Part shown: one piece after another, positions 2,848 to 29,000 of the stretch | Numbering within the stretch: position 1 is the first letter of the stretch | How the letters are laid out: the number at the start of each line of letters is the position of its first letter | Assembly: GCA_947177345.1 (NCBI GenBank) | Contig: CAMWUB010000001.1 | Span: forward strand, 1 to 32,397 | Direction: 5' to 3' | Length of the DNA stretch: 32,397 bases | Source of the DNA: an uncultured Ruminococcus sp. | GTDB lineage: Bacteria; Bacillota; Clostridia; Oscillospirales; Ruminococcaceae | The notes under the pieces: generated by a model | What the model was told of the DNA's origin: nothing | The model's database searches: none | The model's input: the letters and a program-made list of their open reading frames with translations, nothing else | Position numbers and translations under genes: made by a program

Positions 2848-3921
2848 ATGGCTGATGCTTGGGTATTTTATGACAATGGCAGTGACGTAAGTATGATAAG
2901 AAAAGATTATGAAATCTCTTCACTTGGCGATGATGAATTACTGCTAAAACCGATTTATGGAAGTATGGAGGGGAATATTGTTCACGCTTTTAATAAATTT
3001 CCCGAAGATGTTTTTTCTTTGCGTGGCGAAAAGGAAATTGTTATGGGAAATGCTGGTGTCATGCTTGTTTCGGAAACAGGAAGAAATATATCAGATTTGC
3101 AGAAAGGCGATTTATGCATATATTTCTGCAACGGTGAGCCGGACAGATACGGCTATCCGAAAAAAATAACAGGCTATGACAAAAAAAGTTCTATGGGAGT
3201 AATGGCGAAAACTATCAGGCTGAACCGGAACGAAGTTATAAAAATACCGAAAAACAGCAGTATTTCATTGCCTCAATGGGCGATTTTCTCTTTGAAATTC
3301 ATAACTGCATGGTCAAACTGGAAATTGGCTTATAATGCATATCACATACAGCTTCCGGAGGTTTCAGACGAAGAAATATCCGTATGGGGCTGGGGAGGAG
3401 GTGTTTCTTATGCTGAAATAAGACTTGCTCAGCTTATGGGATGCAGAGCCGGTCTTATAACTTCAAAGCAAAGTATTACTGAACTTTGTACTAAACATGG
3501 CATTGACGTTCTTGACAGGAAAATTCGGAATAATTCACTTAAAAAATTCCGTAAGGCATTCTTTGATAAAGCCGGCAGTGAGGGGGCATCAATATTTGTT
3601 GACAATATCGGTGCGGAAACGTATCAGGACACTATAAGGTTTCTTTCACGTGAGGGAGTAATTGCTACAAACGGCTGGAAAGATGGTGCGGTTTATCCGG
3701 TTATAAGGTCATCTGAATGCATTAACAGGCATATTCATGTGCATACCCATTATGCAAGTATGCCAGAGGGGATTGAGGCGGTTGAATTTGCACTGAATCA
3801 TGACTGGATACCGCAGTATACCGGAAGAATATATGATTTTGACAGTCTGCCGGAACTGATGGAGGATTACCGATGCGGCAGGCTGGAAAATTATTTTACT
3901 GTATTCCAAATAAATAATTAA
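2848..3921 (+). CDS. MDR (zinc-binding-dehydrogenase superfamily) NAD(P)H oxidoreductase; candidate trans-acting enoyl reductase or reductase/carboxylase
   Basis: RBS AAAGGAGG; 357 aa; GroES-like N-domain (VMGNAGV..ETGRNISDLQKGD), Rossmann VWGWGGGVS and IFVDNIG; no structural-Zn Cys cluster. Confidence 0.7.
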   Translation: MADAWVFYDNGSDVSMIRKDYEISSLGDDELLLKPIYGSMEGNIVHAFNKFPEDVFSLRGEKEIVMGNAGVMLVSETGRNISDLQKGDLCIYFCNGEPDRYGYPKKITGYDKKSSMGVMAKTIRLNRNEVIKIPKNSSISLPQWAIFSLKFITAWSNWKLAYNAYHIQLPEVSDEEISVWGWGGGVSYAEIRLAQLMGCRAGLITSKQSITELCTKHGIDVLDRKIRNNSLKKFRKAFFDKAGSEGASIFVDNIGAETYQDTIRFLSREGVIATNGWKDGAVYPVIRSSECINRHIHVHTHYASMPEGIEAVEFALNHDWIPQYTGRIYDFDSLPELMEDYRCGRLENYFTVFQINN

Positions 3922-3930
3922 GGTGATGAA

Positions 3931-4845
3931 ATGAAAATTATAGCTGTAGGAAAATACATACCTGAAAATCTGATATCAAATTACGAAAGAGCCGAAAATT
4001 TCGGAAGGAAAAAAAGCTTTATTGATAAAAAAATAGGCTTCCGTTCACTTTCTGTTGCGGATAAAAATGAAAGTATCAGGGATATGTGCATGAAAGCATA
4101 TTCTGATTTGATTTCAAAGGTTGATATAGACGTAAGCGGACTGGAGATTATAACAACAGTTGTTCAGCGTCCTGACCAGTTTATGCCGAATATGTCGGCA
4201 ATTATTCATAATTGCATAGGTGCGGAAAAAAACTGCATGGCTTTTGACATCGTTCACGCCTGTTCCGGCTATGCTTATGCACTGAATATAGTAAATTCCA
4301 TGAATGTTAAATATGCTCTGATTTTCACGGCTGATAAGTACAGCGAAGTTGTATCTGAAAATGACGAAAATGTTGCAATGATTTTTGCTGACGGTGCAAC
4401 AGCAACGCTCCTTTCCACAGAGGGAAACGGCTATGAAATATGCGACGGTGATATGGGAAATCTTCCGGCAAGCTGGCAGTGTATAACAGGAAAAGACTTT
4501 ATAAATATGAATGGAGCAGAAATTTTCAGAAATGCTTCGTTTGAAGTTCCGGAAAGTATTAATAAAATTCTGAAAAGAAACAATCTCGCTAAAGATGATA
4601 TTGACAGGATATTTCTTCATCAGGCAACGAAAAAAATTGTTGATTTCCTTTCTTTTCAGCTTGAATGTCCGGAAAAAGTGAGTTTCTGTGCGGAAGATTA
4701 TGGAAATACTGGTCAGTCTTCATTGCCGGTTATACTTAGCGATATAGAGGATTTCTCTATATATAGCCATGTTATTTTATGTGGTTTCGGAGCAGGCTTC
4801 AGTTGGGGAACGGTGCTTTTGAAGTATGTATCAGAAAATTATTGA
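3931..4845 (+). CDS. fabH: 3-oxoacyl-ACP synthase III (FabH-like KSIII), cluster-specific homolog
   Basis: Cys-His-Asn triad: HACSGY, FLHQA, YGNTGQSS; C-terminal GFGAGFSWG. Confidence 0.9.
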   Translation: MKIIAVGKYIPENLISNYERAENFGRKKSFIDKKIGFRSLSVADKNESIRDMCMKAYSDLISKVDIDVSGLEIITTVVQRPDQFMPNMSAIIHNCIGAEKNCMAFDIVHACSGYAYALNIVNSMNVKYALIFTADKYSEVVSENDENVAMIFADGATATLLSTEGNGYEICDGDMGNLPASWQCITGKDFINMNGAEIFRNASFEVPESINKILKRNNLAKDDIDRIFLHQATKKIVDFLSFQLECPEKVSFCAEDYGNTGQSSLPVILSDIEDFSIYSHVILCGFGAGFSWGTVLLKYVSENY

Positions 4846-4859
4846 AAGAAGGTGTATTT

Positions 4860-5069
4860 ATGAATATCAAAGATTTAACAGAATTAATGAAATCTGCGAA
4901 TGTGGAATTTGAGGGCGAAGTTTCTGAAAATGTTACTTTCAGTGACCTTGAAATCGACTCTCTTGATATTATGATGCTTGCATTTGAAATAGAAAAGAAA
5001 ACAGGCAGAAAACTTACATTCGCAAAAGATGAAACAATGAAAGAAGTGATGGAAAAAATAAATGGCTAA
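4860..5069 (+). CDS. Acyl carrier protein (69 aa)
   Basis: RBS GAAGGTG before ATG 4860; acidic, with LEIDSLDIMML phosphopantetheine motif. Confidence 0.9.
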   Translation: MNIKDLTELMKSANVEFEGEVSENVTFSDLEIDSLDIMMLAFEIEKKTGRKLTFAKDETMKEVMEKING

Positions 5070-6243
5070 AGATATTTTTCTTATTGTTGCAGATGGAAGT
5101 ACGAAAGAGGAATCTGTAGAAAATCTGAAGAAAAAAGCACAGAAGATTTCTGAAAAGAATATAAGCATGAAACTTTGCAGTCTGTTGAATGAAGAAGTTT
5201 CAGGAGAAAAATTCCGTTCATGCATTGTCTTTTCAGATGCTGAAAATCTCAGGAGACAGCTTGCAGACGAAAACAGTATCTCAACGTGCGAACACAAAGA
5301 GAGTGGAAAACGGGTGTTTTTATTTCCCGGAAATGGCATATACCAGAAAGATATGCTCAGAATATTGAAAAATTCTCATTCTTATCTGAAACACATCATT
5401 GAAGAATGCGAAAACAGCGACAAAACCCATGTACTTGAAAATGATGATTATCTTTCAAGGCAATTGCAGATATGCATAAGTGAAATTGCAGTTATGAAAT
5501 TTTGGATATACTGTGGTGTTGTCCCTGATTTCATTATTGGTCACAGTCTCGGCGAATATGCTGTGGCAACGGCGACAGGAGTTATGAGTATTGAAAACTG
5601 TATCAGAATGCTGAACGCAAGAGGAAAGATACTCAATGAAAAAATGAATGATTTTATCATGCTTGCCGTATATGCATCTTATGAAAAAGTCAGCGAGGTT
5701 CTTGGTGGAAATGTTGATGTTTCTGCTTATAACTGCCCCGAACTTATAACCATAACTATTGAGTCGGGTGCACTTGAAAGAATCGGCAGTATATTTAAGG
5801 AATGCGGAATAAAATATAACCGTCTTCCGCTTTCCGGCGGAGGTCACAGCAGAAAGCTTAAATCAGCGGAAAAGGAATTTAAAGAAGCGATAAGTGATAT
5901 TCAGCTGAACACTGCGGAAATTGAAATTATACCTACCGCTGTTGTCGGTGCGGACAAAACGGCATTATATGATATTGATTACTGGACAGGGCATCTTGTT
6001 AATCCCGTCTGCTTTATGCAGTCATTTGAAAGGCTGTGCGGAGAGGATATCCGTTCAATGATAGATGTCGGCGTGTCTCCGGTACTGCTTAATATGGCAA
6101 TGATGAATTTCAGAGATTTAAGTGTAAGGTGGATACCAAGTATAAAAAGTGGAAGAAATTACAGAACACAGCTTATAAAATCAGCATCTCAGCTTTATCT
6201 GAGTGGTGAAAATATTATATGGAAAAATTTATTTGAAGGATAG
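5062..6243 (+). CDS. Free-standing PKS-type acyltransferase with flanking KS-AT and post-AT linker segments
   Basis: VFLFPGNG, GHSLGE (catalytic Ser), conserved Arg (NARG), SAYNCP, GGGHS, YWTGHLVNPVCF; C-terminal SQLYLSGENIIW. Confidence 0.9.
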   Translation: MAKDIFLIVADGSTKEESVENLKKKAQKISEKNISMKLCSLLNEEVSGEKFRSCIVFSDAENLRRQLADENSISTCEHKESGKRVFLFPGNGIYQKDMLRILKNSHSYLKHIIEECENSDKTHVLENDDYLSRQLQICISEIAVMKFWIYCGVVPDFIIGHSLGEYAVATATGVMSIENCIRMLNARGKILNEKMNDFIMLAVYASYEKVSEVLGGNVDVSAYNCPELITITIESGALERIGSIFKECGIKYNRLPLSGGGHSRKLKSAEKEFKEAISDIQLNTAEIEIIPTAVVGADKTALYDIDYWTGHLVNPVCFMQSFERLCGEDIRSMIDVGVSPVLLNMAMMNFRDLSVRWIPSIKSGRNYRTQLIKSASQLYLSGENIIWKNLFEG

Positions 6244-6254
6244 GAAGTGCAGAA

Positions 6255-6959
6255 ATGCAGGAGTTTGTGAAAACTATTGTTGAACTGAAAAATGTTTCCA
6301 AAGAGTTCGGGTCAAACGGCAATATTCAAAAAGCAGTTGATAATGTAAGCTTTACTGTCAATAAGGGCGAGTTTGTCGTTCTGCTTGGGCAGTCGGGTGC
6401 TGGAAAATCCACTGTGCTGAATATGATTGGCGGGCTTGATTTTGCGACAAGCGGAAACATTATAGTAGACGGAACTGATATTTCAAAAATGTCTGAAAAA
6501 GATATTACTCTTTATCGTGCTGATAAGGTTGGATTTATTTTTCAGTTTTATAATCTTATTCCCAGTCTTACAGCTCTTGAAAACGTATCACTCATAAAAA
6601 GTATAGTCAAAGATTGTGACAATCCGAGTAAAATGCTTGAACTTGTAGGACTGGGCAAACATGAAAAGAAATTTCCGTCACAGCTTTCAGGTGGTGAACA
6701 ACAGCGTGTATCTATTGCAAGGGCATTATGCAAAAAGCCTGATATTATTCTCGGCGACGAACCCACTGGTGCATTGGATTCAGAAACCGGAATGGCTGTT
6801 ATCGCCCTTTTGCAGAAACTTTGCAGAGAAGAGAAAAAAACAGTCATAATTGTAACTCATAATGTTGATTACTCTGCATATGCTGACAAGATTATCAAAA
6901 TGTGCGACGGAAAAATTGTTGAATGCATCGAAAATAATAACGTAAAAAATATTGATTAA
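6255..6959 (+). CDS. ABC transporter ATP-binding protein (LolD/MacB family)
   Basis: Walker [18 protein letters not shown], signature LSGGEQQR, Walker [13 protein letters not shown]-loop IVTH. Confidence 0.95.
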
Positions 6960-6973
6960 AAGAAGGTGGAAAA

Positions 6974-9274
6974 ATGCTGCTTAAAAAAATGTTCCGTGAA
7001 TTTTTGAAAAGCAAAGGGCAGTTTATTTCAATAATTTTACTGGCGTTTCTCGGTGTATTTGTGTATTCCGGTTTGAGTGCTATGGGCTATGGTTTAAAGG
7101 CCTGTTATACTGATTATTATGAAGAAACAAATTTCTCTGATTACTGGATATACGGAAAAGGGTTCAGTGAAGAAGATGTAGGAAACGTAAAGTCAATAAG
7201 CGGTGTTTCAGATGTTCAGCGGAGTATCACTCTTGATACTGCTGTTTCCGGCGAAGAATCTAAAACTGTCACATTGAATATTCTTGAACAGAATACCATA
7301 AATGCCCCGAAAGTCATGGAGGGCGAACCCGTTGACCTTGCAATTGCCGATGCAATATGGATAAATCAGAATTATGCAGAAAAGAACAATATTAGCACAG
7401 GTGACAGCATTAAGCTTGAATACGGTAGTATTTCACTTGAATTTACTGTCAAAGGCATTGTTCTTGCTCCAGAGTATATTTATTATGTTGCAAGCGATGC
7501 TATTTATCCCGATTTTGAAAATCTGGGCTATGCTTTCTGCTCTGCTGAAAGACTTAAAGAAGAGGGTTTGTCAAATTTCGTAAAATATAATAAACTTACT
7601 GTTGTTTCAGATATTGAAGATAAAGACAAATTCGAGGAGCAGGTTTCTGAAAAGCTTGACGGCGGATATGCTGTTATTATCAACCGTGATGATTTTGCAA
7701 GCCATAATATGATAGCCGGAGAATTTGATGAGGCTCACTCAATGAGTGTTATTTTCCCTGTTATATTTGCACTTATTGCACTGCTTACAATTATTATTAC
7801 AATGAGAAGACTTATCAAAACGCAAAGAACACAGATAGGTACTTTAAAAGCATTAGGTTTCAGCAATAAGAAAATAATTCTGCATTATATTTCCTATGGA
7901 TTTTTCACATCTGTCATAGGTGCGGTGCTTGGTCTTGTAACAGGACCGGCGGCTCTGCCTGCGATGTTCTGGCCGTCATACAAGACAGCTTATGCTATGC
8001 CGGAATGGAAAGGCGAGTTTCAGCTTTCTTCTTTCGCAATTGCTGTTGCATTTATTATATTCTGTACTGCTTCAGTATATTTTGCGTGCCGTAAAATACT
8101 TGCAGAAAATGCGTCTGAGGAACTCCGACCGGAAGTTCCTCCGGTTGCAAAACATCATGGTTTTGTAAATTCAAAATGGTGGGCAAAACGCAGTTTCTAT
8201 ACGCAGTGGAATTTAAGAAATTTAATGAATTCCAAATTAAAGCTTGTAATAGGAATACTTGGTACTATGAGCAGTATGGGAATTCTTGTAAGTGCATTTT
8301 TGACAAATGACTCTTTTGCATTCATGAAAAAATGGACGTATGAAGATATAAGCAAATATAAATATCAGGTTTTCTTTTCCGAAGACGCTTCTGCTGAACA
8401 GAAAGAAACTGTTATTGAAGAAATCAACGGCGAAAGCATGATGACCGGAAGTATCGTTATTCAGAAAGACAAGGACTCTGAAAAAAAGACTTCCAATATA
8501 ACAGTTGTTGAAAACGGCAACAGTGACCTTTACTGTCTTGTTGACCATAACCTGAACAAGATGTCAATAAGCGATGATGACTTTGTGATTTCTGAACAGC
8601 TTGCAGATGTTATGGGAATTGAAAACGGCGATACAGTCCGCTGGCATCTCTATTCTGGTGAAGAATGGATTGAGTCTAAGGTGACAGCAGTAAACCGTGT
8701 TCCTATGGGGCAGGGAATATGGCTGACAAAAAATGCCCTTGAAAAAACATATGTTGAATATAACGGAAATATTGCTGTGACAAATGATGACCTTGATGGT
8801 TATGAAAGTGACTATGTATCAAAGATTTATAATCAGGACGATATCCATGAGGCATGGGACAAAGGCATGATGGCTCTTAATCTCATGATATATATGCTTA
8901 TATTGGCGGCTCTGCTTTTGGCAATAGTTGTTCTTTACAATATCGGGGCATTTTCATTCATGGAAAGTTCCAAAGAATTTGCACAGTTAAGAGTTCTTGG
9001 TTTCAGAAACAAGGATATAAGAAAGATACTCGTTGTACAGAATATATGGCTTTCAGCCGTCGGAATTATTCTCGGCATTCCATTAGGTTATGCTATTCTT
9101 CGTGCTGTTACCGGAAGTGCCGGAGAAGATTACGACTTTGTACTTAATCTTTCGCCTGCCGCATTGGTGGTTTCTGCGATTATAACCTTACTGGTAGGAC
9201 TTGCAGTAACGTTTATGTTTTCAAAGAAAATAAAGCGTATGAACCTTGTCAAAGAATGCAAGGGCAATGAATAA
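6974..9274 (+). CDS. ABC transporter permease with two FtsX-like domains
   Basis: 766 aa; two repeats of TM + large extracellular domain + 3 TM; QIGTLKALGF and EFAQLRVLGF motifs. Confidence 0.93.
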   Translation: MLLKKMFREFLKSKGQFISIILLAFLGVFVYSGLSAMGYGLKACYTDYYEETNFSDYWIYGKGFSEEDVGNVKSISGVSDVQRSITLDTAVSGEESKTVTLNILEQNTINAPKVMEGEPVDLAIADAIWINQNYAEKNNISTGDSIKLEYGSISLEFTVKGIVLAPEYIYYVASDAIYPDFENLGYAFCSAERLKEEGLSNFVKYNKLTVVSDIEDKDKFEEQVSEKLDGGYAVIINRDDFASHNMIAGEFDEAHSMSVIFPVIFALIALLTIIITMRRLIKTQRTQIGTLKALGFSNKKIILHYISYGFFTSVIGAVLGLVTGPAALPAMFWPSYKTAYAMPEWKGEFQLSSFAIAVAFIIFCTASVYFACRKILAENASEELRPEVPPVAKHHGFVNSKWWAKRSFYTQWNLRNLMNSKLKLVIGILGTMSSMGILVSAFLTNDSFAFMKKWTYEDISKYKYQVFFSEDASAEQKETVIEEINGESMMTGSIVIQKDKDSEKKTSNITVVENGNSDLYCLVDHNLNKMSISDDDFVISEQLADVMGIENGDTVRWHLYSGEEWIESKVTAVNRVPMGQGIWLTKNALEKTYVEYNGNIAVTNDDLDGYESDYVSKIYNQDDIHEAWDKGMMALNLMIYMLILAALLLAIVVLYNIGAFSFMESSKEFAQLRVLGFRNKDIRKILVVQNIWLSAVGIILGIPLGYAILRAVTGSAGEDYDFVLNLSPAALVVSAIITLLVGLAVTFMFSKKIKRMNLVKECKGNE

Positions 9275-9287
9275 AATCGGAGGAAAA

Positions 9288-10031
9288 ATGAGAAAAACAG
9301 CAGTTATAACAGGTGCATCAGCCGGCATAGGAAGTGCCGCTGCATTGGCATTCGCAAAGAACGGATATGATGTTGTACTGAACTACAGAAAAGACGAAAA
9401 GTATAATATGACTTTGAATATCGCTGAAAAGTGCAGGCAATACGAAGTTAATGCCATATGCATAAAAGCTGATGTATCAGATTTTGAACAGTGCCAAAAA
9501 CTTACAGGCGAAGTAATGGACAAATTCGGGAGAATAGATGTTCTCATCAATAATGCCGGAATGTCAAGAGTTGCTTTTCTTGCCGGTCACGCCCCTGAAC
9601 TTTATAAAGAGGTTATTTATAATAATCAGTTCAGCGTTTTCAATATGATGAGTCTTGTTTCTGTCATTATGAAAAAGCAGAAAAGCGGTCGTATAGTTAA
9701 TATTTCGTCTTTGGCGGGAACACACGGCAGTCAGGGACTTACCGCTTATGCGGCGGCAAAGGCAGGAGTAGAGGCAATGACAAGATGTGCAGCAAGAGAA
9801 CTTGCAAGGAGTGGTATTCGTGTGAATGCCGTCTGCCCTGGTGCTGTCAATACTGAAGCATATGCCGGAAATCTTTCAGAATTACACCTGAAAGAAATCA
9901 AAAGGTCAATTGCGGTTGGTCATCTGGCTGAACCTGAAGAAATAGCTGAATTTATAGTTACTATATGTTCAGATAAATTTGACTCGATAACAGGTGAAGT
10001 TTTGAATATAACCGGCGGAATGGTTTTATAA
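9288..10031 (+). CDS. FabG-like SDR ketoreductase 1
   Basis: RBS GGAGG before ATG 9288; TGASAGIG, INNAG, NISS, YAAAK, VNAVCPG. Confidence 0.9.
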   Translation: MRKTAVITGASAGIGSAAALAFAKNGYDVVLNYRKDEKYNMTLNIAEKCRQYEVNAICIKADVSDFEQCQKLTGEVMDKFGRIDVLINNAGMSRVAFLAGHAPELYKEVIYNNQFSVFNMMSLVSVIMKKQKSGRIVNISSLAGTHGSQGLTAYAAAKAGVEAMTRCAARELARSGIRVNAVCPGAVNTEAYAGNLSELHLKEIKRSIAVGHLAEPEEIAEFIVTICSDKFDSITGEVLNITGGMVL

Positions 10032-10045
10032 TAAAGGAGATATTT

Positions 10046-14683: not shown

Positions 14684-14707
14684 ATAAAATGAAAGGTTTG
14701 TATACTG

Positions 14708-18400: not shown

Positions 18401-21400
18401 CATACGCATGGTTTCCAAAATCAAGGAAAGCGGATACAGCATTTCGCTGACGGAATTATATAAGCATGATAATATAGGAAGTATGGCGGAATATCTTGCC
18501 AGCATGAAACCGGCGGTTGAAAATCATGAAAAAACTTTTGAAATTGCACCTTTGGACAAGTGGAAACCTTTTAGGCTCACGCCTCTTCAGGAGTCATATT
18601 TTATCGGCAGAGTAAATAGCCGGAATAATTCGTCTGTCTTTACCGGCGGATATATTGAGCTTGACTGTAATGAATATAACCATGATAAAATGCAGTTCTG
18701 CATCAGAAAAATTATAGCAAAGCATGATATTCTGAGATGTTCAATAAATGATGACGGAACACAGCAGTTTCTTGAAACAGTTGATGTATATAATATAGAG
18801 CTTGATGACCTTACATCGCTTAGTGAAAGTGAAAAGCAGAAGGCACTTTCAGTTTCAAGAAAACAGGTATCAGAAACAAAAACAGATTTGAAAAAACCTC
18901 CACTTATTTTTATAAAATCTTCGCTTATCGGAAAAGAACACGCAATAATGCACATATATCTTGACGGACTTATACTTGATGGCTGTGGAACAGAGCTTTT
19001 TATTTCGGAGCTGGCAAGTCTTTATATCAACGGAAAATATATGTATGATTCTGTAGACGTTACTTTCAGGGATTATGTCCGTTATCTTGAATATCAGCGT
19101 ACTACAGAACAGTTTCAGACAGATAAGGATTACTGGAAATCACGCATATCTGATATGCCTGAAAGTGCATCGCTTCCGCTTTTGAAATCTCCTGATGAAA
19201 TTACAGATGCAATAAGCGGACAGATACCATGTAGTATTTCAATTGAAGACTGGGATAAACTCGGCATGATAGCAAAAAAATACAGAGTCACGACTTTTTC
19301 AGTGCTTTTTACAGCGTTTGCATATGTAATGTCAAGATGGAACAACAAAAAGCGTTTTCTGTTGAATATCCCGGCGTTTGACGTTCCGGATTTTCATAAG
19401 GATTATTTCAAGGTAATGGGTGTGTGTTCGTCATTCCTGATTGTAACGATTGAGATTAACACAAATAAAAGCTTTCTGGAAAATGTAAAGAAAATTCAGT
19501 CCCATATTCTTGAGCTGAAAGAACACAGCACCTATTCCGGCATGGATGTTGTACATGATATTTACAGAATGAACGGAAGAAACGATACTGAGTCACTTGT
19601 GCCATTTGTTTTCGGAATGGTAATGGAAACCGGAAAAAATGACAGCAATATTCCGGAAGACAAGCAGAAACTTATAAAACTAAGCTATCAGGAAAATCGT
19701 ACGGCTAAAATACTTATAGATATAAACACTATAAAATACGAAAATCATATTGAATTCAACTGGAATTATCTTGAGGGTGTACTTGACAGGAAAATGCTTT
19801 CTGAAATGGCTTCGGCACAGATTGACATTATAACAAAAGCTGTAAATTCAGAAAATTTTTGGAATACGTCTGTTAATATCAGTCTTCCCGAAAGAGACAG
19901 AAAAGTTATAGAACAGGCAAATAATACGGAAAGTAATTTTGATTTTGTATCAATGCCCGTTGTTATTGAAAAAAGCATAAAAGAATACAGCGACAAACCA
20001 TATCTTAATACTATTGATAAAAGCTATACATATTCGGAAATTGGTATACTATGCCGGAGATTTGCGTCGATGCTCTTGGAAAAAGGCTGTTGTGCGGGAG
20101 ATTACATTGCAGTGCATATGGAAAAATCAGCGGAGCAGATTATTGCTATTCTTTCAATAGCTATGACAGGTGGTGTTTATGTTCCTGTTGAATATAATTA
20201 TCCTTTCAGGCTGGCAGAAAAATGTTTTCGAAATACCGGCTGTAAACTTATGATTGTTTCAAGGGAAAAATCAGCGGATTTTGAAAAATCAGGAATTGAT
20301 ATAATTGTTCCTGATTTGAATGCCCTTCCGGCAGATAACGTCTTTAAAGTAAGCCCTACAGATGAGGAAAGTCTTATTGCAATAATACATACTTCTGGCT
20401 CTACCGGAGAACCTAAGCCGGTAATGGTAGGACAGAAGGGACTTTTAAACAGCCTGATATTCACTAACCATAAATTCGGAGTATCTGCTAATGATTCGGC
20501 TATTGCCCTTACAAATACCGCACATGATATGTCAATGTATGATATTTTCGGAATGCTTATGGCTGGTGCTTCATTGACTCTTCCGTATGAAAAAGACGCA
20601 AAAAATCCGCGGGTATGGATAGAACTCATCAGAAAATACGGCGTTACTATATGGAATTCTGTTCCGGCAATGCAGGAAATGCTCCGGTCTGTTATCAGGG
20701 ACGAACAGTTAAAAGATATAAGCACTCTCAGGCTGATAATTCACGGGGGCGATTATCTTAAGCCTGCTTTGGCACAGTGGATACATGACAGCATAAAAAA
20801 TGTCGTTCTTGTAAATGTCGGCGGTCCTACAGAAACTACTTTATGGAATATTTTTCATATTGTCAGCGAAGAGGATATAAATTCAAGAAATATACCTTAC
20901 GGCAAGCCGATAAGCAATACAAAATATTATGTTCTTAATGAAAATCTTGAAAAGCTTCCAATAGGTGTTTCAGGCATGATGTACTGTGCCGGTGTTGGGG
21001 TGACTAAAGGTTACTATAATAATCCGGCTCTTACAAGTGAAAAGTACATTATTTTACCTGAAACTAACGAGAGAGTATACAGGACAGGCGATATGGGAAA
21101 ATACCGCGAGGACGGAACGCTAATGTTTATGGGGCGTGAAGATAATCAAGTAAAAATTAACGGAAAGCGTATCGAGCTTAAAGGAATTGCTTCTGTTATT
21201 ATGGAATTTGAAGAAGTAAATGAATGTGAAGTATTTGTCATAAACGGCAATGAAATAACAGCATATTATACAGCAGATAAAAAAATTCGGGCTGATATTC
21301 TCAGAAATCATACTGCCTCTCTTCTTCCGTCATATATGATTCCGAAACATTTTGTATTTGCAGACAGAATAATATGCAAGCCTAACGGAAAAGTCGATAA

Positions 21401-21698
21401 GCAGGCTATGATTTCAGCCTATGATGTCGGGACAGACAATGTAAACACTGAAAACATTGAAAATCTTGATGAGATTGAACAGAAAATCCTTGATATTTAC
21501 AGAAGGGAACTGAATATTGAAATCGATGCTGATACGGATATTTATATGGCTGGGGGAGACTCAATAATGATTCTCAATATGATACCACTGATAAAAGAAA
21601 TGTTCAGTATTGAAATGGAGTTATCAGAAATTTTCAGTTTTACGACTGTCAGGGAAATTGCTGATTATATTAAAGAAAGTATGGTCGATAAGCAGTGA
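15465..21698 (+). CDS. Bimodular NRPS, Cy-A(Cys)-T-Cy-A(?)-T, with no terminal TE, Ox or MT domain
   Basis: Cy1 LTEVQLAYVIGR, DMIIMD, SQTPQLLID; A1 YTSGSTGEPKG, FDLSVYD, LSGDWIP, SLGGATEGSIW; T1 LGIDS; Cy2 PFRLTPLQESYFIGR, DGLILD; A2 HTSGSTGEPK, NVGGPTETTLW, PNGKVDK; T2 AGGDS. Confidence 0.95.
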   Translation: MDKKEKYELTEVQLAYVIGRSDNMYLGGNSTHFYFEVNMTADISRFETALNKVIEKQSMLRNVVYDDGTQNEYQGNTYFTVETVDVCGNEAFSECPQLLSHREKASQRVFPLNTWPMFEIKAFSYGNDKYVLALDFDMIIMDRFSIDIFLTELYNFYSNPDNENVGLNHTFRDYISDKKEYKKLNYDSDKVFWNDIITSLPPAPQIPHKEDIPSGSRFSSKEFIISAEKWNSIKEILHSRRITPSVFVLVCYAKMLSMWSNQSSLTINMTAGKRKVGRKIYNDVIGDFTELLLIDFDFMNDSDSKAYSMLEMCETTQSKLRKYMKHDSFTAIEAMKEYSKLNNGTADFYFAFTSRITDNTSEVYSELFTERGYQISQTPQLLIDCQVSEQDGELYLRWDYIEMAFDENFLDDMYRTFAEYVLQGIEAESHVLYELEKAIEKYNSTRQDIPSCTLQELFRHQAERTPDKTAVYADGESLRYKELDEKATVVASYIVENFGIGKRICVLAERNVMTIVNIVGILKAGCTYIPIDSSYPEERKNSIIKQSSAVALLGTDFYESIKDNVTILSEAVRGIGNSNDEAYIIYTSGSTGEPKGVVITHDAVCNTVQDINKRFSITEKDCIIGISSFCFDLSVYDIFGALSTGAELVIAKDIFDTENIKNLMKEFNVTFWNTVPSIMEMLINSIESGEKFLPLRNVFLSGDWIPLRLPDEIKKHFPNASVTSLGGATEGSIWSIYYPVEKNNSSWKSIPYGYPLTNQQMYVLNYDGKPTPFGAVGEICIGGRGVAKCYQGMEKLTAEKYTLHEKYGRIYHTGDFGVFHRNGCIEFMGRKDSQFKIRGFRIELGEIESALMKCENVREAVADVFVNSAGTQYLLGYVVLNDESAEFDEDSMKKTIGNYLPKYMMPSHIYELKNIPLTSNGKVNRKALPKKIENITAEYIAPSTETEKLIVSLVENISGCENAGINESLFDLGIDSVKAIRMVSKIKESGYSISLTELYKHDNIGSMAEYLASMKPAVENHEKTFEIAPLDKWKPFRLTPLQESYFIGRVNSRNNSSVFTGGYIELDCNEYNHDKMQFCIRKIIAKHDILRCSINDDGTQQFLETVDVYNIELDDLTSLSESEKQKALSVSRKQVSETKTDLKKPPLIFIKSSLIGKEHAIMHIYLDGLILDGCGTELFISELASLYINGKYMYDSVDVTFRDYVRYLEYQRTTEQFQTDKDYWKSRISDMPESASLPLLKSPDEITDAISGQIPCSISIEDWDKLGMIAKKYRVTTFSVLFTAFAYVMSRWNNKKRFLLNIPAFDVPDFHKDYFKVMGVCSSFLIVTIEINTNKSFLENVKKIQSHILELKEHSTYSGMDVVHDIYRMNGRNDTESLVPFVFGMVMETGKNDSNIPEDKQKLIKLSYQENRTAKILIDINTIKYENHIEFNWNYLEGVLDRKMLSEMASAQIDIITKAVNSENFWNTSVNISLPERDRKVIEQANNTESNFDFVSMPVVIEKSIKEYSDKPYLNTIDKSYTYSEIGILCRRFASMLLEKGCCAGDYIAVHMEKSAEQIIAILSIAMTGGVYVPVEYNYPFRLAEKCFRNTGCKLMIVSREKSADFEKSGIDIIVPDLNALPADNVFKVSPTDEESLIAIIHTSGSTGEPKPVMVGQKGLLNSLIFTNHKFGVSANDSAIALTNTAHDMSMYDIFGMLMAGASLTLPYEKDAKNPRVWIELIRKYGVTIWNSVPAMQEMLRSVIRDEQLKDISTLRLIIHGGDYLKPALAQWIHDSIKNVVLVNVGGPTETTLWNIFHIVSEEDINSRNIPYGKPISNTKYYVLNENLEKLPIGVSGMMYCAGVGVTKGYYNNPALTSEKYIILPETNERVYRTGDMGKYREDGTLMFMGREDNQVKINGKRIELKGIASVIMEFEEVNECEVFVINGNEITAYYTADKKIRADILRNHTASLLPSYMIPKHFVFADRIICKPNGKVDKQAMISAYDVGTDNVNTENIENLDEIEQKILDIYRRELNIEIDADTDIYMAGGDSIMILNMIPLIKEMFSIEMELSEIFSFTTVREIADYIKESMVDKQ

Positions 21699-22363
21699 AA
21701 GTATTTTTATTTGCACATTCAGGCGGAAACGTCTGGACATATTCAAGGCTTTTCAGTTCGGTTGAGGGTCATGAATTTATACCGGTTGAATTGCCAGGAA
21801 ATGTTTCAAGATTCAGGGACAAACTGCCTAATAACTTTGAAGGTTATCTTGAAACTGCATATCAGATAATAATGCAGAAAGTTGACTATGACGAGGAAAT
21901 AGCTTTATTCGGGCATAGTTTCGGCGGATATCTGCTTTATGACCTTTCGCTCATGCTTGTCCCGAGAGTAAAAAGAGTTATAATATCATGCAGTACGCCG
22001 TTTCATAGATATACTCTTCCGCCTGAAAGTATCGATTACAGTTCGCTTTATAATTTTCCGGTCAAGCCCGATAAAAAGATAGTTGAGGTTTTCAACCCGA
22101 TTATAAGGCATAAAATTGAACTTATAGATGCATATAAGGAAAGATTTAGCTGTAACTCTGATATAAAGCTTTCAGATACAAAGGCAACTCTTATATATGC
22201 CTCCGATGATATTATGACAGGTTATATTTATGAATGGTCAAAATATTTCGGCGAAGGAAACTGTGAGATTATAAAATTTGACGGCGGGCATTTTTATTGG
22301 ATGGAAACCGAAGAAAACAAGAAAAAACTTTGCAGATTAATTGCAGAAAGGTTGAAGAATTAA
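21695..22363 (+). CDS. Type II thioesterase (Ser nucleophile)
   Basis: GTG start overlapping the NRPS stop; LFAHSGG, VELPG, GHSFG, GGHFY. Confidence 0.88.
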   Translation: MKVFLFAHSGGNVWTYSRLFSSVEGHEFIPVELPGNVSRFRDKLPNNFEGYLETAYQIIMQKVDYDEEIALFGHSFGGYLLYDLSLMLVPRVKRVIISCSTPFHRYTLPPESIDYSSLYNFPVKPDKKIVEVFNPIIRHKIELIDAYKERFSCNSDIKLSDTKATLIYASDDIMTGYIYEWSKYFGEGNCEIIKFDGGHFYWMETEENKKKLCRLIAERLKN

Positions 22364-22596
22364 TGAAAGTAAATAAAGAAGAACTCCGTAAACTTATTGC
22401 AGAAGTTCTTGAAATGGAAGCTGAAGACATTGATGATGAAACAGATTTCAATAAAGACCTTGCTATAAATTCACTTCAGATGCTTGATATGGTAGCTGAA
22501 ATAGAGGATAACTATGACCTAATCATTGAGCATAACGAAATCAGAAACATGACCAACATAAACAAAATCGCTGAGGCACTCGAAAAACGCATATGA
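22363..22596 (+). CDS. Acyl carrier protein (77 aa) of the type II KS-CLF system
   Basis: ATG 22363 overlaps the upstream stop (TAATG); acidic; DLAINSLQMLDMVAEIE motif. Confidence 0.9.
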   Translation: MKVNKEELRKLIAEVLEMEAEDIDDETDFNKDLAINSLQMLDMVAEIEDNYDLIIEHNEIRNMTNINKIAEALEKRI

Positions 22597-23792
22597 ACAG
22601 AAGAAGAATTGCTGTTGTTGGTCTCGGCGTAATAAGTCAAGCTGGTTGCAATAAGGAAGAATTTTTTGAAAATATTCTGAGTGGTCAAAAGCATGAGACT
22701 GAATTTATTCCGGAAAGAATTACACAGTCATACTGTCGTAAGTATGATATGATTGACAGGAATATTCTTCAAACTCTTGAAAAAGAGCGTCTAACGAAGA
22801 ATGAAAGGAACACTCTGGGGCTTTGTGCGAAACTGGCGGTATTATCTGCCGATGAGGCTTTAAAGGATTCAGGAATTATTATTGATGAAATTAATGCGGA
22901 ATTGGTTTCAGTTCTTATCGGTTCGGCTTATGGTGAAAATTACAGCTATGAAAAATTCACATCTTCTGATGCAAGAGTTTACAGTAATACTGATATTTCT
23001 TCGTCTGTGGCAAGACATATCGGTGCAGCCGGAGAAATTTTCACTAATATCAATGCCTGTGCCACCGGAAACACAAGTATTGCTTATGGCTGTGAACTTA
23101 TTTACAATAAAAGAGCTGATATAGTTGTTGCCGGAGCTTCAGATGTTTATTCAGAACTGCTTTATGGAGGGTTCAGCAGAATAAAAGTTTTGTCGGGCAA
23201 TGTGCAGAAACCTTTTGATGTAGACAGAGATGGAATAATTCTCAGCGAAGGAGCAGGTACAATTATATTAGAGGATTACGACCACGCTGTAAAACGAGGG
23301 GCATATATTTACTGTGAAGTTCTCGGAACAGGAATGAGCAATGACGCATATCATATGGTTGCTCCCGACCCGACGGCAAAAGGTGCAGTTTCAGCTATAA
23401 TGAATGCACTTGAGGACTCAGGTTGTTCTGCTGGTGATATTGACTATATATCACTGCACGGAACGGGCACTCAGGCAAATGACATATGCGAAAGTCTTGC
23501 CCTGAAAAAAACATTTGGTGATTATGCCGGAAGAATATATGCAAGTTCGTTAAAAGGTTTGCTGGGGCATAGTCTCGGAACGGCTTCTATGCTTTCATCT
23601 GTAAGCTGTGTGATGAGTATTGAAAAGGGTATGATACCTTTTACTGCAAATACAGAAAATCCTATAAGCGAATGCCCCGTGAAACTGGTTATAAATGAGA
23701 GTGTAAAAAAAGATTTGAATATAGTTATGAATAATGCTTTTGCTTTCGGAGGAAGTAACTGTATAATTATTTTCGGTAAATGCCGGAACTGA
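22593..23792 (+). CDS. fabF: FabF-like type II ketosynthase (KS-alpha), cluster-specific homolog
   Basis: Cys-His-His triad NACATG, LHGTGT, GHSLG; PFDVDRDG, SEGAG, NAFAFGG. Confidence 0.92.
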   Translation: MNRRRIAVVGLGVISQAGCNKEEFFENILSGQKHETEFIPERITQSYCRKYDMIDRNILQTLEKERLTKNERNTLGLCAKLAVLSADEALKDSGIIIDEINAELVSVLIGSAYGENYSYEKFTSSDARVYSNTDISSSVARHIGAAGEIFTNINACATGNTSIAYGCELIYNKRADIVVAGASDVYSELLYGGFSRIKVLSGNVQKPFDVDRDGIILSEGAGTIILEDYDHAVKRGAYIYCEVLGTGMSNDAYHMVAPDPTAKGAVSAIMNALEDSGCSAGDIDYISLHGTGTQANDICESLALKKTFGDYAGRIYASSLKGLLGHSLGTASMLSSVSCVMSIEKGMIPFTANTENPISECPVKLVINESVKKDLNIVMNNAFAFGGSNCIIIFGKCRN

Positions 23793-23816
23793 TTATTATT
23801 ATGAAAAGAGGTTGTT

Positions 23817-24884
23817 ATGAGAGCATTGGGAATAAGCTGTGAAAGCTACATTTCTTGTTTCGGAAGTTCGTCTGAAAAGCTGCATCAGATGCTTTTTTGC
23901 CGGAATGCAGCAGCAAATACAGGCAGTTCGGCAGACCTTAGCGACATGGCAGAAAGTCCTGTTTACAATATTACTGATGGATTTGAACTTTCTGCCCGAA
24001 TGCTTGCACTTACTGTATATAGTTCAACAGAAAAATTCAAAGCAAAGTTCAGCAGTGCCGATATTGAAAGTTTCGGGATTTCGGCCGGCTGTGTTTTTGG
24101 AAGTGTAAAGGAAACGGAAATTGCTGACAGGAAAGTAAACGAAAAAGGTCTTAGGGGAATAAGCGTTAAAAATATGCTGAACAGTGTGCCGTGTGGTTCG
24201 TCATCAAAGTCGGCTATTGTCAGTTGCCTCAGAGGTGAGAACGTTATAAACTGCAACGGCGTGACAGCTTCAATTGACTCACTGATTTATGCTTCCGACC
24301 GTATTGAAAGAGGCATCTGTAAGGGAATGGCAGCAGGCGGTACTGAAGAAAACAATCTGCTTGTAAGACTTGCGTCATCTGATTTGAAAAATGTCACACT
24401 AAGTGAGGGAGCAGGTTCTGTGATAATTCATGATGCGGCTTGTGGTGCTGATTGTTATATGCTGGGAAAGGGAAGAAGTTTTTCACCGGAAAATAATTAT
24501 TCCTCTGCATTGATATCAGCCGTCAGCAAGGCAATAAAAAGCATTGAAGATTCTGATAAAAAAATTGACCTTGTTATATGCGGTTTCAATTCTGATGAAG
24601 AAAGTGACAACGCCCGTCTTTCCGCAATGGAATACTGTTTCGTGAAAACAGGAGTCCGCTGTTACTCTGCTAAAGGAATTTTCGGAGAAGTTGCCGGTGC
24701 AGATGGTATACTTGCGGTTATTGCCTCAATGGAAATATTACGCTCACAGAAATTTCCGTCAGATTGTATAAATATAGGGAATGTTTCAGAATGCAGTGAA
24801 ATAAAGAATATTCTTATTGCTGATGTTGATAAATGTGGTCTGGCATCTTGCGTTATTTTAGGAAAGGAAATCTATTATGGATAA
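23817..24884 (+). CDS. Non-catalytic KS homolog (chain-length-factor-like partner)
   Basis: KS fold remnants (AGGTEE, LSEGAG, SAKGIFGEVAGADG), but NGVTAS at the catalytic-Cys position, no HGTGT, and GE replacing GH; directly follows the active KS. Confidence 0.8.
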   Translation: MRALGISCESYISCFGSSSEKLHQMLFCRNAAANTGSSADLSDMAESPVYNITDGFELSARMLALTVYSSTEKFKAKFSSADIESFGISAGCVFGSVKETEIADRKVNEKGLRGISVKNMLNSVPCGSSSKSAIVSCLRGENVINCNGVTASIDSLIYASDRIERGICKGMAAGGTEENNLLVRLASSDLKNVTLSEGAGSVIIHDAACGADCYMLGKGRSFSPENNYSSALISAVSKAIKSIEDSDKKIDLVICGFNSDEESDNARLSAMEYCFVKTGVRCYSAKGIFGEVAGADGILAVIASMEILRSQKFPSDCINIGNVSECSEIKNILIADVDKCGLASCVILGKEIYYG

Positions 24885-25620
24885 TAGAAGTGTTGTTATT
24901 ACAGGGGCTGTTCAGGGAATAGGGCGTGCGGTGGTGCTTAAGTTTGCCAATAACGGATATAGCGTTGCAATAAATTATCGTAATCCCCTGAAAGAATCTG
25001 AGGCAAAAGCACTTGCAGAAGAATGCAGTAAAATTTCCGGAAGAGAGGCTATTGCAATCTGTGCCGATGTTTCTGTGCCGGAAAACTGTAAGTTTCTGAT
25101 TGATGAAACTGTCAGAAGATTCGATAAAATAGATGTTGTTGTAAATAATGCCGGAATAATGAAATACTCGCTTTTACATAGAATGAGCGATGAGGATTAC
25201 AGGCAGATGGTATCTTCAAATCAGGACAGTGTTTTTTTCATGATGAAATATGCCGGAAAGCATATGCTGAAAAAAAAGAGTGGTTCTATTGTGAATGTAG
25301 CGTCTGTTGCCGGAATATACGGCTCGTCTGCATTGTCGGTATATTCAGCCACTAAGGGTGCTGTTATAGCTATGACAAAGAGTGCGTCAGTGGAATTTGC
25401 ACGTAAAAATGTAAGAGTAAATGCTGTCGCTCCGGGGATGGTAAACACTCCTATGACGAATGATTTTACAGCGGAGGAAAAAGAAAATATGAGCAGTAAT
25501 ATTCCGGTAGGAAGGTTTGCCGAGCCGCCGGAAATTGCAGAGGCGATATACTGGCTTGCGTCAGACGAATCTTCATATATTACTGGTCATGTCATGGAAA
25601 TCAGCGGAGGACTGAAATAA
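24877..25620 (+). CDS. FabG-like SDR ketoreductase 2
   Basis: TGAVQGIG, VNNAG, NVAS, YSATK, VNAVAPG. Confidence 0.9.
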   Translation: MDNRSVVITGAVQGIGRAVVLKFANNGYSVAINYRNPLKESEAKALAEECSKISGREAIAICADVSVPENCKFLIDETVRRFDKIDVVVNNAGIMKYSLLHRMSDEDYRQMVSSNQDSVFFMMKYAGKHMLKKKSGSIVNVASVAGIYGSSALSVYSATKGAVIAMTKSASVEFARKNVRVNAVAPGMVNTPMTNDFTAEEKENMSSNIPVGRFAEPPEIAEAIYWLASDESSYITGHVMEISGGLK

Positions 25621-25623
25621 TTT

Positions 25624-26373
25624 ATGTTCCATTCTGAAAAAAAGACAATTTTTTCTTACAAGGACAAAATTTATCCGGTTTCATTTTCCGCAGTTTCACT
25701 GGAAAATTCGGATAAAACAGAAATCGAAAAATACCTCGGCACGAGAGAGTATGAATATTTCAGAAGTCTGAAATACAGAAAAAAGCGTCATGATTATCTC
25801 CTGAGCAGACTTAGTGCAAAATTTGCAGCTACAAATCTGGATATATCATATATTCCTGAAAATATAACGATAACAAACGGCTGTTTTATGCAGCCCTGTC
25901 TGCACATGAAAAACTGTGAATCGGGATATTCTGTAAGTATTACCCATTGCAGTAATATAGGCATATCGGTGGTATTTCCCGATGAATATGCAGTGGGTAT
26001 AGACCTTGAATATATTGATACCAAAAGTGCGGATGTGATAAAAGAGTACCTGACAGAGAATGAAAGAATTATAAGCAGAAATGGCAACGATATGATAACA
26101 ATGATGTGGACTGCAAAGGAAGCACTTTCAAAAATTATCAGAACAGGTTTTACTGCAAATATGAAAATTTTTGAGATTTCAACTACTTGCAGTTCAGATA
26201 CAGAAAATGTTTTCATTTTGGATTTTTTATATTTTTCAAATATGACAGCATACAGTTTTAGGTTTAAAGAATATATTTTTTCGGTAGTTATGCCAAAAAA
26301 TTCTGATTTCAGCATATCAGATATTATCAGTCTGTTGAAAAAAATTAAGGAGTGGAAAATCAGTGTCAAATGA
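25624..26373 (+). CDS. 4'-phosphopantetheinyl transferase (Sfp-type)
   Basis: VSITH, VGIDLE, WTAKEALSK; 249 aa. Confidence 0.92.
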   Translation: MFHSEKKTIFSYKDKIYPVSFSAVSLENSDKTEIEKYLGTREYEYFRSLKYRKKRHDYLLSRLSAKFAATNLDISYIPENITITNGCFMQPCLHMKNCESGYSVSITHCSNIGISVVFPDEYAVGIDLEYIDTKSADVIKEYLTENERIISRNGNDMITMMWTAKEALSKIIRTGFTANMKIFEISTTCSSDTENVFILDFLYFSNMTAYSFRFKEYIFSVVMPKNSDFSISDIISLLKKIKEWKISVK

Positions 26374-27115
26374 ATTTAAAGACAGGAATTTTATTGTGAC
26401 CGGTGGCTGTAAAGGAATAGGAAAAGCCGTAGTGACAGCACTGTTGCATTCAGGTGCAAATGTTGTGGCTACTTATAACAGTTCTGCTGACGAGGCGGAG
26501 CAGATGATGAAAGACTCGGAAGATTATGAGGGTACTTTGCATATTTACAAAATGAATGCAGGTCTTGAGGAAGAAATTTCAGATGTGATAAAAAAAATTA
26601 TTTCCGATTTCAACGGCTGTATTGACGGTCTTGTGAATAATGCCGGAATAACCAGCGATTGTCTGTTGGTAGGAATGAATAGTGACGATTGGAATAATGT
26701 TATAAATATCAATCTCAACGGCGTATACAATGTTACAAAAAATGTTATTGTACCAATGCTGAAACGTAAAAAGGGTTCTGTTGTAAATATAAGTTCAGTC
26801 AATGGTATGCACGGCGTTGCAGGTCAGACGAATTATAGTGCCTCAAAGGCGGGTGTTATTGCCTTCACAAAGTCTCTTTCAAGGGAAACAGCTGGTAAAA
26901 ATATCAGGATAAATGCAGTATCACCAGGATATATTAATACTTCAATGGTAAGAAATATGAATGCTGATACTGTTGAACGCATAAAGTCGATGATTCCCGT
27001 GCATCGTCTGGGAAGACCGGAGGAAGTTGCAGAGGCTGTTATGTTTCTGCTTAGCGATAGGTCGAGTTATATTACAGGACAGGTTATTGTCATTGACGGT
27101 GGTATGACAGCATGA
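26363..27115 (+). CDS. fabG: 3-oxoacyl-ACP reductase (FabG-like SDR 3)
   Basis: GTG start after AAGGAG; TGGCKGIG, NNAGITSD, NISS, GQTNYSASKAG, PGYINT. Confidence 0.9.
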   Translation: MSNEFKDRNFIVTGGCKGIGKAVVTALLHSGANVVATYNSSADEAEQMMKDSEDYEGTLHIYKMNAGLEEEISDVIKKIISDFNGCIDGLVNNAGITSDCLLVGMNSDDWNNVININLNGVYNVTKNVIVPMLKRKKGSVVNISSVNGMHGVAGQTNYSASKAGVIAFTKSLSRETAGKNIRINAVSPGYINTSMVRNMNADTVERIKSMIPVHRLGRPEEVAEAVMFLLSDRSSYITGQVIVIDGGMTA

Positions 27116-28256: not shown

Positions 28257-28262
28257 ATCTCT

Positions 28263-28985: not shown

Positions 28986-29000
28986 ACAATGGAGGACACT

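Follow-up and report, generated by a model that had tools for sequence, protein, structure and literature searches.

A 19-gene Ruminococcus operon that joins type II and type I ketosynthases to a heterocyclising peptide synthetase and likely makes an exported, alkyl-branched thiazoline lipid

Here we describe a set of 19 genes at positions 2848-27115 of contig CAMWUB010000001.1 (assembly GCA_947177345.1) from an uncultured Ruminococcus sp., a stretch of 32,397 nucleotides (nt) that was analysed over its whole length and is called the window below. The genes form an intact hybrid operon whose likely product is an exported lipid that bears a thiazoline and an alkyl branch. A preliminary description of the same DNA had proposed a dissociated type II ketosynthase (KS) and chain length factor (CLF) pair working with a trans-acting type I KS and a nonribosomal peptide synthetase (NRPS) that contains heterocyclisation (Cy) domains, in an anaerobic clostridial genus, and our analysis supports that architecture. 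The thiazoline lipid that it envisaged as product stands in part: the thiazoline is retained, whereas the KSIII and the first acyl carrier protein (ACP) most likely belong to an extender cassette, so that an alkyl branch is to be expected. Reading the parts together, we favour a linear route in which a type II acyl chain would pass through a thiazoline and a (methyl)oxazoline to an alkyl-branched ketide and be released by a condensation (C) domain, and we give this route a probability of about 0.45.

The window is the whole of contig C1 of a 2.09-Mb assembly that is 79% complete, and the GC content of the cluster is 37.8% against 38.4% for the genome. All 19 genes lie on the + strand with intergenic gaps of -14 to +24 nt and no internal stop in any frame, in agreement with the co-oriented, coupled genes described earlier. 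A Pfam and NCBIfam scan of the 28 open reading frames (ORFs) of the window identified five carrier domains (the ACP at 4860-5069, that of the KS-ACP protein, two NRPS thiolation (T) domains and the ACP at 22363-22596), a FabH-like KSIII, a type I KS without acyltransferase (AT), a FabF-like KS, a discrete AT, two stand-alone C domains, two thioesterases (TEs), three short-chain dehydrogenase/reductases, a 4'-phosphopantetheinyl transferase (PPTase), and an ABC ATPase with an FtsX permease. The earlier count of five carriers, three KS classes including the KS/CLF pair, two TEs, a PPTase and an exporter is thus borne out, as are the two Cy domains; it left out the carboxylase/reductase encoded by gene 1, and to it we add a TE with Cys in place of Ser and a second Cy domain without the conserved Thr. 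The type I polyketide synthase (PKS) that it called AT-less does lack an AT domain in the KS protein, yet the cluster has a discrete AT at 5062-6243. Catalytic motifs are complete in the type I KS, the FabF-like KS, the KSIII, the ketoreductases (KRs) and both C domains. In a second data set (run X1), near-identical contigs are present in 29 of the 30 bins between 2500 and 22400 and in 25 of the 30 between 12400 and 32397; substitutions are scattered, and indels are not listed. These contigs are short and do not themselves prove the gene order. The features of the operon are as follows.

2510-2538, + strand: sigma70/sigmaA-type promoter consensus with extended -10 (12/12 matches, TG present), a consensus match only, 310 nt 5' of gene 1
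2848-3921, + strand: gene 1, likely IcuL/TgaD/Leu10-type enoyl-thioester carboxylase/reductase, 357 aa, medium-chain dehydrogenase/reductase (MDR) fold (homology and CO2-pocket positions)
3931-4845, + strand: FabH-like KSIII (Pfam ACP_syn_III and _C; Cys, His and Asn motifs)
4860-5069, + strand: free ACP1 of the putative extender cassette (PP-binding; start led by a ribosome-binding site; DSL motif)
5062-6243, + strand: discrete AT (Pfam Acyl_transf_1; GHSLG active site, GGGH specificity motif, N-terminal remnant of a KS-AT linker)
6255-6959, + strand: ABC exporter ATPase, MacB/LolD-like (Pfam/NCBIfam)
6974-9274, + strand: FtsX-type ABC permease (Pfam)
9288-10031, + strand: FabG-like ketoreductase KR1 (Pfam/NCBIfam; YxxxK)
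10046-12067, + strand: type I KS-ACP without AT or KR (Pfam; Cys/His/His intact)
12067-13392, + strand: stand-alone C domain C1 (Pfam; HHxxxDG intact)
13379-14683, + strand: stand-alone C domain C2, apparent tandem duplicate of C1 (63% aa identity to C1)
14708-15472, + strand: thioesterase-fold protein TE1 with Cys nucleophile, GHCTG (Pfam; motif)
15465-21698, + strand: NRPS of 2077 aa, Cy1-A1(Cys)-T1-Cy2-A2(Thr/Ser-like)-T2, with predicted specificities of the adenylation (A) domains (Pfam; structure matches; signatures)
21695-22363, + strand: type II thioesterase TE2, GHSFG (Pfam; motif)
22363-22596, + strand: free ACP2 of the type II set (Pfam/NCBIfam)
22593-23792, + strand: FabF-like type II KS (Cys/His/His intact)
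23817-24884, + strand: catalytically dead, CLF-like KS partner (weak FabF matches; heterodimer model)
24877-25620, + strand: FabG-like ketoreductase KR2 (Pfam/NCBIfam; YxxxK)
25624-26373, + strand: PPTase (Pfam)
26363-27115, + strand: FabG-like ketoreductase KR3 (Pfam/NCBIfam; YxxxK)

Gene 1 is likely an IcuL/TgaD-type crotonyl-CoA carboxylase/reductase (CCR), predicted to fix CO2. Its only Pfam match is a weak one to ADH_zinc_N. A homolog search returned 288 proteins, and a profile of 119 rows (the window protein and 118 of the 120 listed, P0001 and P0064 being left out) had CCRs as the six best of its 25 matches in the PDB (best E 9e-16). The CO2 pocket of an enoyl-CoA carboxylase/reductase (ECR) consists of N81, F170, E171 and H365, with N77, F166 and E167 the counterparts in CinF (PMC6628652). 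At the positions that correspond by sequence alignment, with the numbering anchored on CinF and 3hzz, the family has N43 in 119/119 proteins, Y or F110 in 119/119, D111 in 118/119 and H301 in 118/119; the window set N43/Y110/D111/H301 matches Asn and His of the ECR exactly and differs by conservative Tyr for Phe and Asp for Glu. The profile also matches a locus of icumazole architecture, with a non-terminal TE, at E 3e-168, and the 90% cluster of that protein includes SOCE836_041200 (P0277), the final tag in the range of 12 icu genes (bioRxiv 10.1101/2022.11.22.517467), which we take to be icuL. Gene 1 is 37% identical to SOCE836_041200 over its full length (378 columns, E 3e-97) and shares the N/Y/D/H pocket of IcuL. 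IcuL, TgaD and Leu10 form a non-canonical CCR family of about 380 aa with 18% identity to CinF, and they carboxylate enoyl-SNAC thioesters in vitro (bioRxiv 10.1101/2022.11.22.517467). Likewise gene 1, at 357 aa, is only 16-18% identical to the CCR structures and 19% to a canonical CCR of a congener (G120), and it scores 20.4 bits with the canonical model TIGR01751, below the cut-off of 378.55 bits. A tree of 36 rows, in which the outgroups are long branches, nests it within the family, grouped with clostridial and Bacillus rows at a support of 100/99, and its predicted structure has a pLDDT of 96. IcuL-type reductases, reported for antibiotics of myxobacteria and actinomycetes, are thereby extended to a clostridial and bacillar branch, and the family, with 288 protein matches and 354 genomic stretches, is much larger than the preprint's network of 11 proteins (edges >25%; polyoxypeptin CCR 41.6%; bioRxiv 10.1101/2022.11.22.517467). 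The profile found no match in 49 viral contigs.

Together with the KSIII, ACP1 and the discrete AT, gene 1 very probably forms a cassette that supplies an alkylmalonyl extender, and the product should therefore carry an alkyl branch. A FabH gene beside a CCR gene, with reduction and dehydration proposed for the host, is described for an alkylmalonyl extender unit in a system whose AT carries the motif SPGH (PMC6490886), and our link from AT motif to substrate rests on that paper. The GGGH of the discrete AT is of this xxGH type and is not HAFH. Among 80 gene 1 family loci retained from 354, a FabH-like gene is present in 26, a type I KS in 26, an AT in 23 and NRPS parts in 25, and a KS/CLF match in none. 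The xxGH motif occurs in 15 of 23 distinct ATs taken from 19 of these loci but in only one of 28 control ATs, a comparison tempered by the relatedness of the ATs, which are not independent, and by controls that were the best Pfam scorers of three genomes (30 of 61 matches) and so are biased to canonical ATs; the sole xxGH control lies 2 kb from a gene 1 family member. We considered an aminomalonyl or hydroxymalonyl extender and rejected it, as the cluster has no dehydrogenase pair, and a beta-branching cassette is ruled out by the lack of HMGS and ECH genes. A discrete alkylmalonyl AT that comes with its own extender cassette would be a useful engineering part.

The NRPS accounts for the predicted ring. 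Both of its condensation domains have only Cy domains as best structure matches (BmdB, E 4e-67 and 6e-46). Cy1 has the DxxxxD motif and keeps the conserved Thr and Asp, and the A1 signature beside it, extracted by motif as was that of A2, is DLYNFSLIWK, one position off a Cys code that is exact in a related metagenome locus (L147). A1 is thus predicted to read Cys, and the earlier proposal of a Cys-derived thiazoline gains support. The A2 signature DMYNIGVLWK matches 8 of 10 positions of DMFNFGVLWK, which is listed among Thr-class signatures (PMC12283262), and appears Thr/Ser-like. No oxidase or methyltransferase is encoded in the cluster, and the absence of an oxidase points to a thiazoline rather than a thiazole. 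A pyochelin-type siderophore was ruled out, since genes for salicylate, a reductase and an uptake receptor are all lacking in the window. TE1 has GHCTG, and a Cys-TE is likewise found in L147, G120, G041 and G185, Ser being present in 6 of 11 aligned TEs, TE2 among them. Cys-TEs act as acyl shuttles or form beta-lactones, and a Cys-TE reportedly closes the beta-lactone of obafluorin; our literature search found no paper on either role.

Release by a stand-alone C domain is suggested by the company these domains keep. In two proteins (P0124 and P0125) the orthologous ACP is fused to the C domain, which suggests that the donor for C is the PKS ACP. An intact HHxxxDG in a stand-alone C domain, together with this fusion, makes the predicted activity resemble that of the zeamine/fabclavine type, fabclavine arising from a zeamine-like system. 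The structure 4znm, an SgcC5-type stand-alone C domain with an ester-forming role, is among the PDB matches (E 7e-9). C1 and C2 are 63% identical in aa and 72-76% in DNA at a constant offset of 1312 nt, the pattern of a tandem duplication; an assembly artefact is ruled out by that DNA identity and by the presence of each version in public proteins. The twin C domains noted earlier are therefore real, but they do not define the system, because L147, which matches the KS-ACP end (83%), TE1 (64%) and the NRPS (63%), has one C domain (74%). A scan of genome contigs with C1 gave 94 pattern matches, none confirmed, and a C-domain profile run over 1.84 billion representatives was dominated by giant NRPSs, with only P0123 scoring as a near relative.

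The acyl chain would come from the type II set. The FabF-like KS matches 6kxd (E 9e-63), and its profile has chain B of 9s5h as top match; the partner at 23817-24884, the Cys-less one of the preliminary description, has no Pfam match and only weak FabF matches and has lost the Cys/His/His set, and its profile matches FabFs and, at the top, chain C of 9s5h. A heterodimer model of the two scored 0.96 against 0.00 for the best of three controls, with at least 97% of contacts agreeing between runs and a partner pLDDT of at least 88; the score mark is reached by 116 of 157 solved pairs and 2 of 215 mismatched pairs. As like dimers are solved, the model may pass by likeness to them rather than prove binding. 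The single-chain fold of the partner (pLDDT 38) was not used for fold search, and a search for its homologs recovered only itself. A dedicated ACP and KR lie beside the pair. A dedicated dehydratase is a feature of the highly reducing type II PKSs that make polyenes; the KS triad, the dead partner and the ACP and KR of such systems are all found here, and the dehydratase is not.

From gene content, motifs, homology and co-occurrence, which were read directly, we infer the substrates, their order and the product of the favoured route. ACP2, the KS/CLF pair and KR2/KR3 would build an acyl chain, probably with host FabD and FabZ. Cy1-A1-T1 would couple it to Cys and close the thiazoline, and Cy2-A2-T2 would incorporate Thr or Ser, which probably becomes a (methyl)oxazoline. 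FabH, ACP1, a KR and host FabZ would meanwhile provide a short enoyl thioester, which gene 1 would carboxylate reductively before the GGGH-motif AT loads the resulting alkylmalonyl unit onto the KS-ACP. The KS would then extend the NRPS product once, and KR1 would reduce it to an alpha-alkyl-beta-hydroxy thioester. The chain would leave the ACP of the KS-ACP for an amine or alcohol through one or both C domains; the Cys-TE would likely shuttle acyl groups and TE2 would edit, and the ABC transporter would export the product. We think it improbable, but worth stating, that the Cys-TE and a stand-alone C domain instead close the beta-hydroxy thioester to an alpha-alkyl-beta-lactone warhead on a thiazoline-oxazoline lipid. 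If true, a fibre-degrading anaerobe would be making a covalent hydrolase inhibitor akin to lipstatin, and the compound would found a Ruminococcus family built on a KS-ACP, free C, Cys-TE and Cy-NRPS module that swaps between two unrelated carboxylase families.

Several observations weigh against the linear route or parts of it. The gene 1 model matches CCRs and alcohol dehydrogenases alike in Foldseek, with TMq 0.74-0.82 for all. No dehydratase or hot-dog domain was found among the 28 ORFs, so that the enoyl substrate would need host FabZ, for which a FabZ-like gene is present on host contig C51. The N(D/E)KD motif marks cis-AT KSs that accept chains from peptidyl carrier proteins (PCPs); the type I KS of the window lacks it, as does a KS-ACP encoded directly after an NRPS in G047, whereas the A-T-KS protein of a clostridial locus (L031) has it. 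In L147 and G185, as in the window, the NRPS gene comes after the KS-ACP and C genes. The cluster lacks a gene to make an acceptor for the C domains. In Cy2 the catalytic Asp is kept, but Gly replaces the conserved Thr, as in L147, and ring 2 may therefore stay open. Because of the missing KS motif, the PKS-first gene order, the atypical Cy2 and the lack of an acceptor pathway, we keep other orders of assembly in view.

One such order is convergent. The KS-ACP would join the type II chain to the alkylmalonyl unit, giving a mycolate-like alpha-alkyl-beta-hydroxy acyl group, while the NRPS would make an acyl-thiazoline-Thr/Ser half whose side-chain hydroxyl stays free owing to the atypical Cy2; one or both free C domains would then esterify the two halves and a TE release them. 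The ACP-C fusion suits this arrangement, identifying the C donor as the PKS ACP and leaving the acceptor unspecified, and so do the loss of the Cy2 Thr in two lineages, the KS without the hybrid motif, the lack of a gene for a free acceptor and the match to 4znm. Zeamine, moreover, has its two branches joined by a stand-alone C domain (PMC5811116). However, other residues can replace the Thr of a Cy domain in PchE, where the Asp is essential (PMC8807600), and Cy2 retains this Asp; the set of G041, which has no KS in 19.7 kb, is better suited to terminal release, and L031 carries the parts in linear order. On balance we regard convergent ester formation as unlikely, though well short of far-fetched.

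Alternatively, a branched acyl group from the KS-ACP could prime Cy1 through the Cys-TE, the C domains being extra acyl transferases or accessory proteins. This would follow the gene order (KS-ACP, C, TE where present, NRPS) seen here and in L147 and, in similar form, in G185; it would also suit an NRPS that starts with a Cy domain, which requires a carrier-bound donor, and the position of TE2 directly after the NRPS gene. TE2, however, is a free type II-like TE, and intact, conserved HHxxxDG C domains with a fusion to the PKS ACP would be left unexplained, so that we hold such a PKS-first order to be improbable. We are similarly sceptical of an outcome in which gene 1 is a trans enoyl reductase only, with a KS that uses malonyl units and an unbranched product, or in which the whole island is silent. 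Its score of 20 against 379 bits at the canonical CCR cut-off, the Asp for Glu at the CO2 pocket and the ability of ECRs also to reduce (PMC6628652) would fit reduction alone, but the same Asp occurs in IcuL, for which carboxylation is proven, and the AT motif is not HAFH. Silence could be argued from a congener, G049, that keeps only a broken 650-bp CLF remnant, the cluster being dispensable there; against it stand 19 open frames and a perfect promoter consensus upstream. We therefore retain the linear route as the best reading.

Each part of the system has a precedent, and so it is the combination that is new: zeamine is a three-way hybrid with a stand-alone C domain, and ossamycin and polyoxypeptin pair FabH with a CCR. 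The combination, its host and the conserved KS-ACP, free C and Cys-TE module appear undescribed, and no cluster with this set was found in the available text of the literature searched (including PMC9582728, PMC13291983 and PMC6164871), which excluded most subscription papers and a comparison with MIBiG; the novelty claimed earlier holds to that extent. Icumazole, thuggacin, leupyrrin, ansaseomycin and polyoxypeptin use the same CCR family in PKS/NRPS hybrids with azole or azoline modules, and a FabH with a discrete ACP, as in the window, is proposed for polyoxypeptin (bioRxiv 10.1101/2022.11.22.517467). Those clusters, from myxobacteria and actinomycetes, are cis-AT modular PKSs of large size, whereas the window comes from an anaerobic clostridial host and combines a type II KS/CLF set with a single AT-less KS-ACP and with AT and KRs encoded as discrete proteins. 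The ossamycin and divergolide systems share FabH beside the CCR, proposed reduction and dehydration by the host fatty acid synthase and a small-residue AT motif, but they are macrolide PKSs, and a dedicated ACP and discrete AT are not described in the available text (PMC6490886). Zeamine is likewise a three-way lipid/NRPS/PKS hybrid in which a stand-alone C domain acts on a PKS ACP at the end; it differs in a polyunsaturated fatty acid (PUFA)-type synthase that makes a polyamine acceptor, the absence of Cy and a malonyl extender (PMC5811116). The window, in contrast, has a type II KS/CLF set and no acceptor pathway, and Pfam found in it no PUFA-synthase-like branch with aminotransferase and reductive release. 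With highly reducing type II PKSs (ishigamide Iga11/12 and aryl polyene; PMC9582728) it shares the FabF-like KS, dead partner, ACP and KR, but it has no dehydratase in the cluster and is coupled to a Cy-NRPS and a type I KS. The Cy-A(Cys)-T chemistry is that of bacillamide (BmdB), yersiniabactin and pyochelin, the best structural-sequence matches of its Cy domains, without their aryl or pyruvate starter, oxidase, reductase or methyltransferase. The sar cluster for salivabactin in Streptococcus salivarius is a 16-gene Firmicute polyketide/peptide hybrid operon whose product has one N and one S (PMC10847043); plasmid matches to gene 1 (4 records), KS-C DNA (0) and the CLF (1) included no Streptococcus, in a collection that was not checked for the sar plasmid. 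Another Firmicute type II/NRPS hybrid was seen on a Bacillus cereus plasmid (L178, 15472-22295), an NRPS cluster with FabG, ACP, KS, CLF-like protein, FabZ and aminotransferase. To our knowledge few metabolites have been described from fibre-degrading ruminococci. The compact, complete 24-kb operon is suited to heterologous expression, and with AT, KR, KS-ACP, C and Cys-TE dissociated, the passing of chains among the type II PKS, the NRPS and the type I PKS becomes directly testable.

Besides L147, distant relatives with a Cy-NRPS, an ACP or KS-ACP and a free C domain occur in G185, G041, G007 and G120. That of G120, in the same genus, has an AT, KS-ACP (34%), Cys-TE, free C (29%), Ser-TE, two ACPs, three KSs, a CLF-like protein, a KR and an ABC transporter; a canonical AntE-like CCR takes the place of the IcuL-type gene, the AT motif is HGAH rather than xxGH, and the Cy-type genes are on a separate contig whose link to the cluster is not shown. 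On contig C46 of this genome (L127, 684-20000) the canonical CCR, four KS-fold genes, KS-ACP, free C and a Cys/Ser TE pair make up an uncharacterised cluster. G041 combines an ACP, free C, Cys-TE and Cy-NRPS in the 19.7 kb examined; its contig C17 (L128, 960-19595) encodes an A plus T-Cy-A(Cys)-T-Cy-A(Cys)-T NRPS, a nitroreductase-type oxidase, a U32-like protein, the ACP, the free C and a Cys/Ser TE pair, and elsewhere in the genome a fused KS-CLF-like protein is encoded (L139, 11103-13538). In uncultured Clostridia (L029-L031), an IcuL-type gene, a FabH split in two frames and an ACP are followed by A-T-KS-AT-KR-ACP-C and a prolyl-tRNA synthetase; L031 thus has the same parts in cis, in PCP-to-KS-to-C order and with AT motif TAGH, and the product of this cluster is predicted to be alkyl-branched.

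The cluster is rare among the genomes searched. The gene 1 family was found in 2 of 161 genus genomes (E<=1e-20) and 1 of 400 class genomes (E<=1e-40), both counts including the window's own genome, with one genome unscored; a free C domain occurs in 5 of 161 genus genomes (E<=1e-25), the CLF in 4 of 161, and KS-ACP in 1 of 351 order genomes searched (E<=1e-100). In G049 the broken CLF piece (95%) stands beside the same right-flank genes (94%), an arrangement that reads as a deletion scar. At this locus (L136, contig C32, 13004-16552) the CLF fragment and a short KR2 piece are next to apparent type I restriction-modification genes.

A mobile element outside the pathway lies on the right flank.

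27170-28310, - strand: flanking IS5 element, intact

An inverted copy (88%) of its 3' end lies at 2007-2161, so that the operon, promoter included, lies between two IS5 ends; no further copy of this IS5 was found in the assembly. A composite-transposon origin is only suggested, because the left end is 156 bp and G049 has no IS match at the equivalent place. Two related ORFs at 126-1139 and 1771-2034 (33% to each other), without family matches and with helicase-like motifs by eye, are possibly mobile-element remains. An Rfam search of the window gave no matches. Just upstream of the -35 box, a 64-nt stretch (2426-2489) is 83% identical to 2938-3001 in gene 1, around the N43 codon, with no clear extension beyond 64 nt. 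One X1 contig omits 215 nt of the 310-nt leader (2560-2776; short side 23 nt, low depth), a possible strain variation. On the right, a flavin adenine dinucleotide (FAD) oxidoreductase with a Rieske domain (28989-30296) is probably not part of the pathway, because a 92% identical copy is kept in G049, where the cluster is lost.

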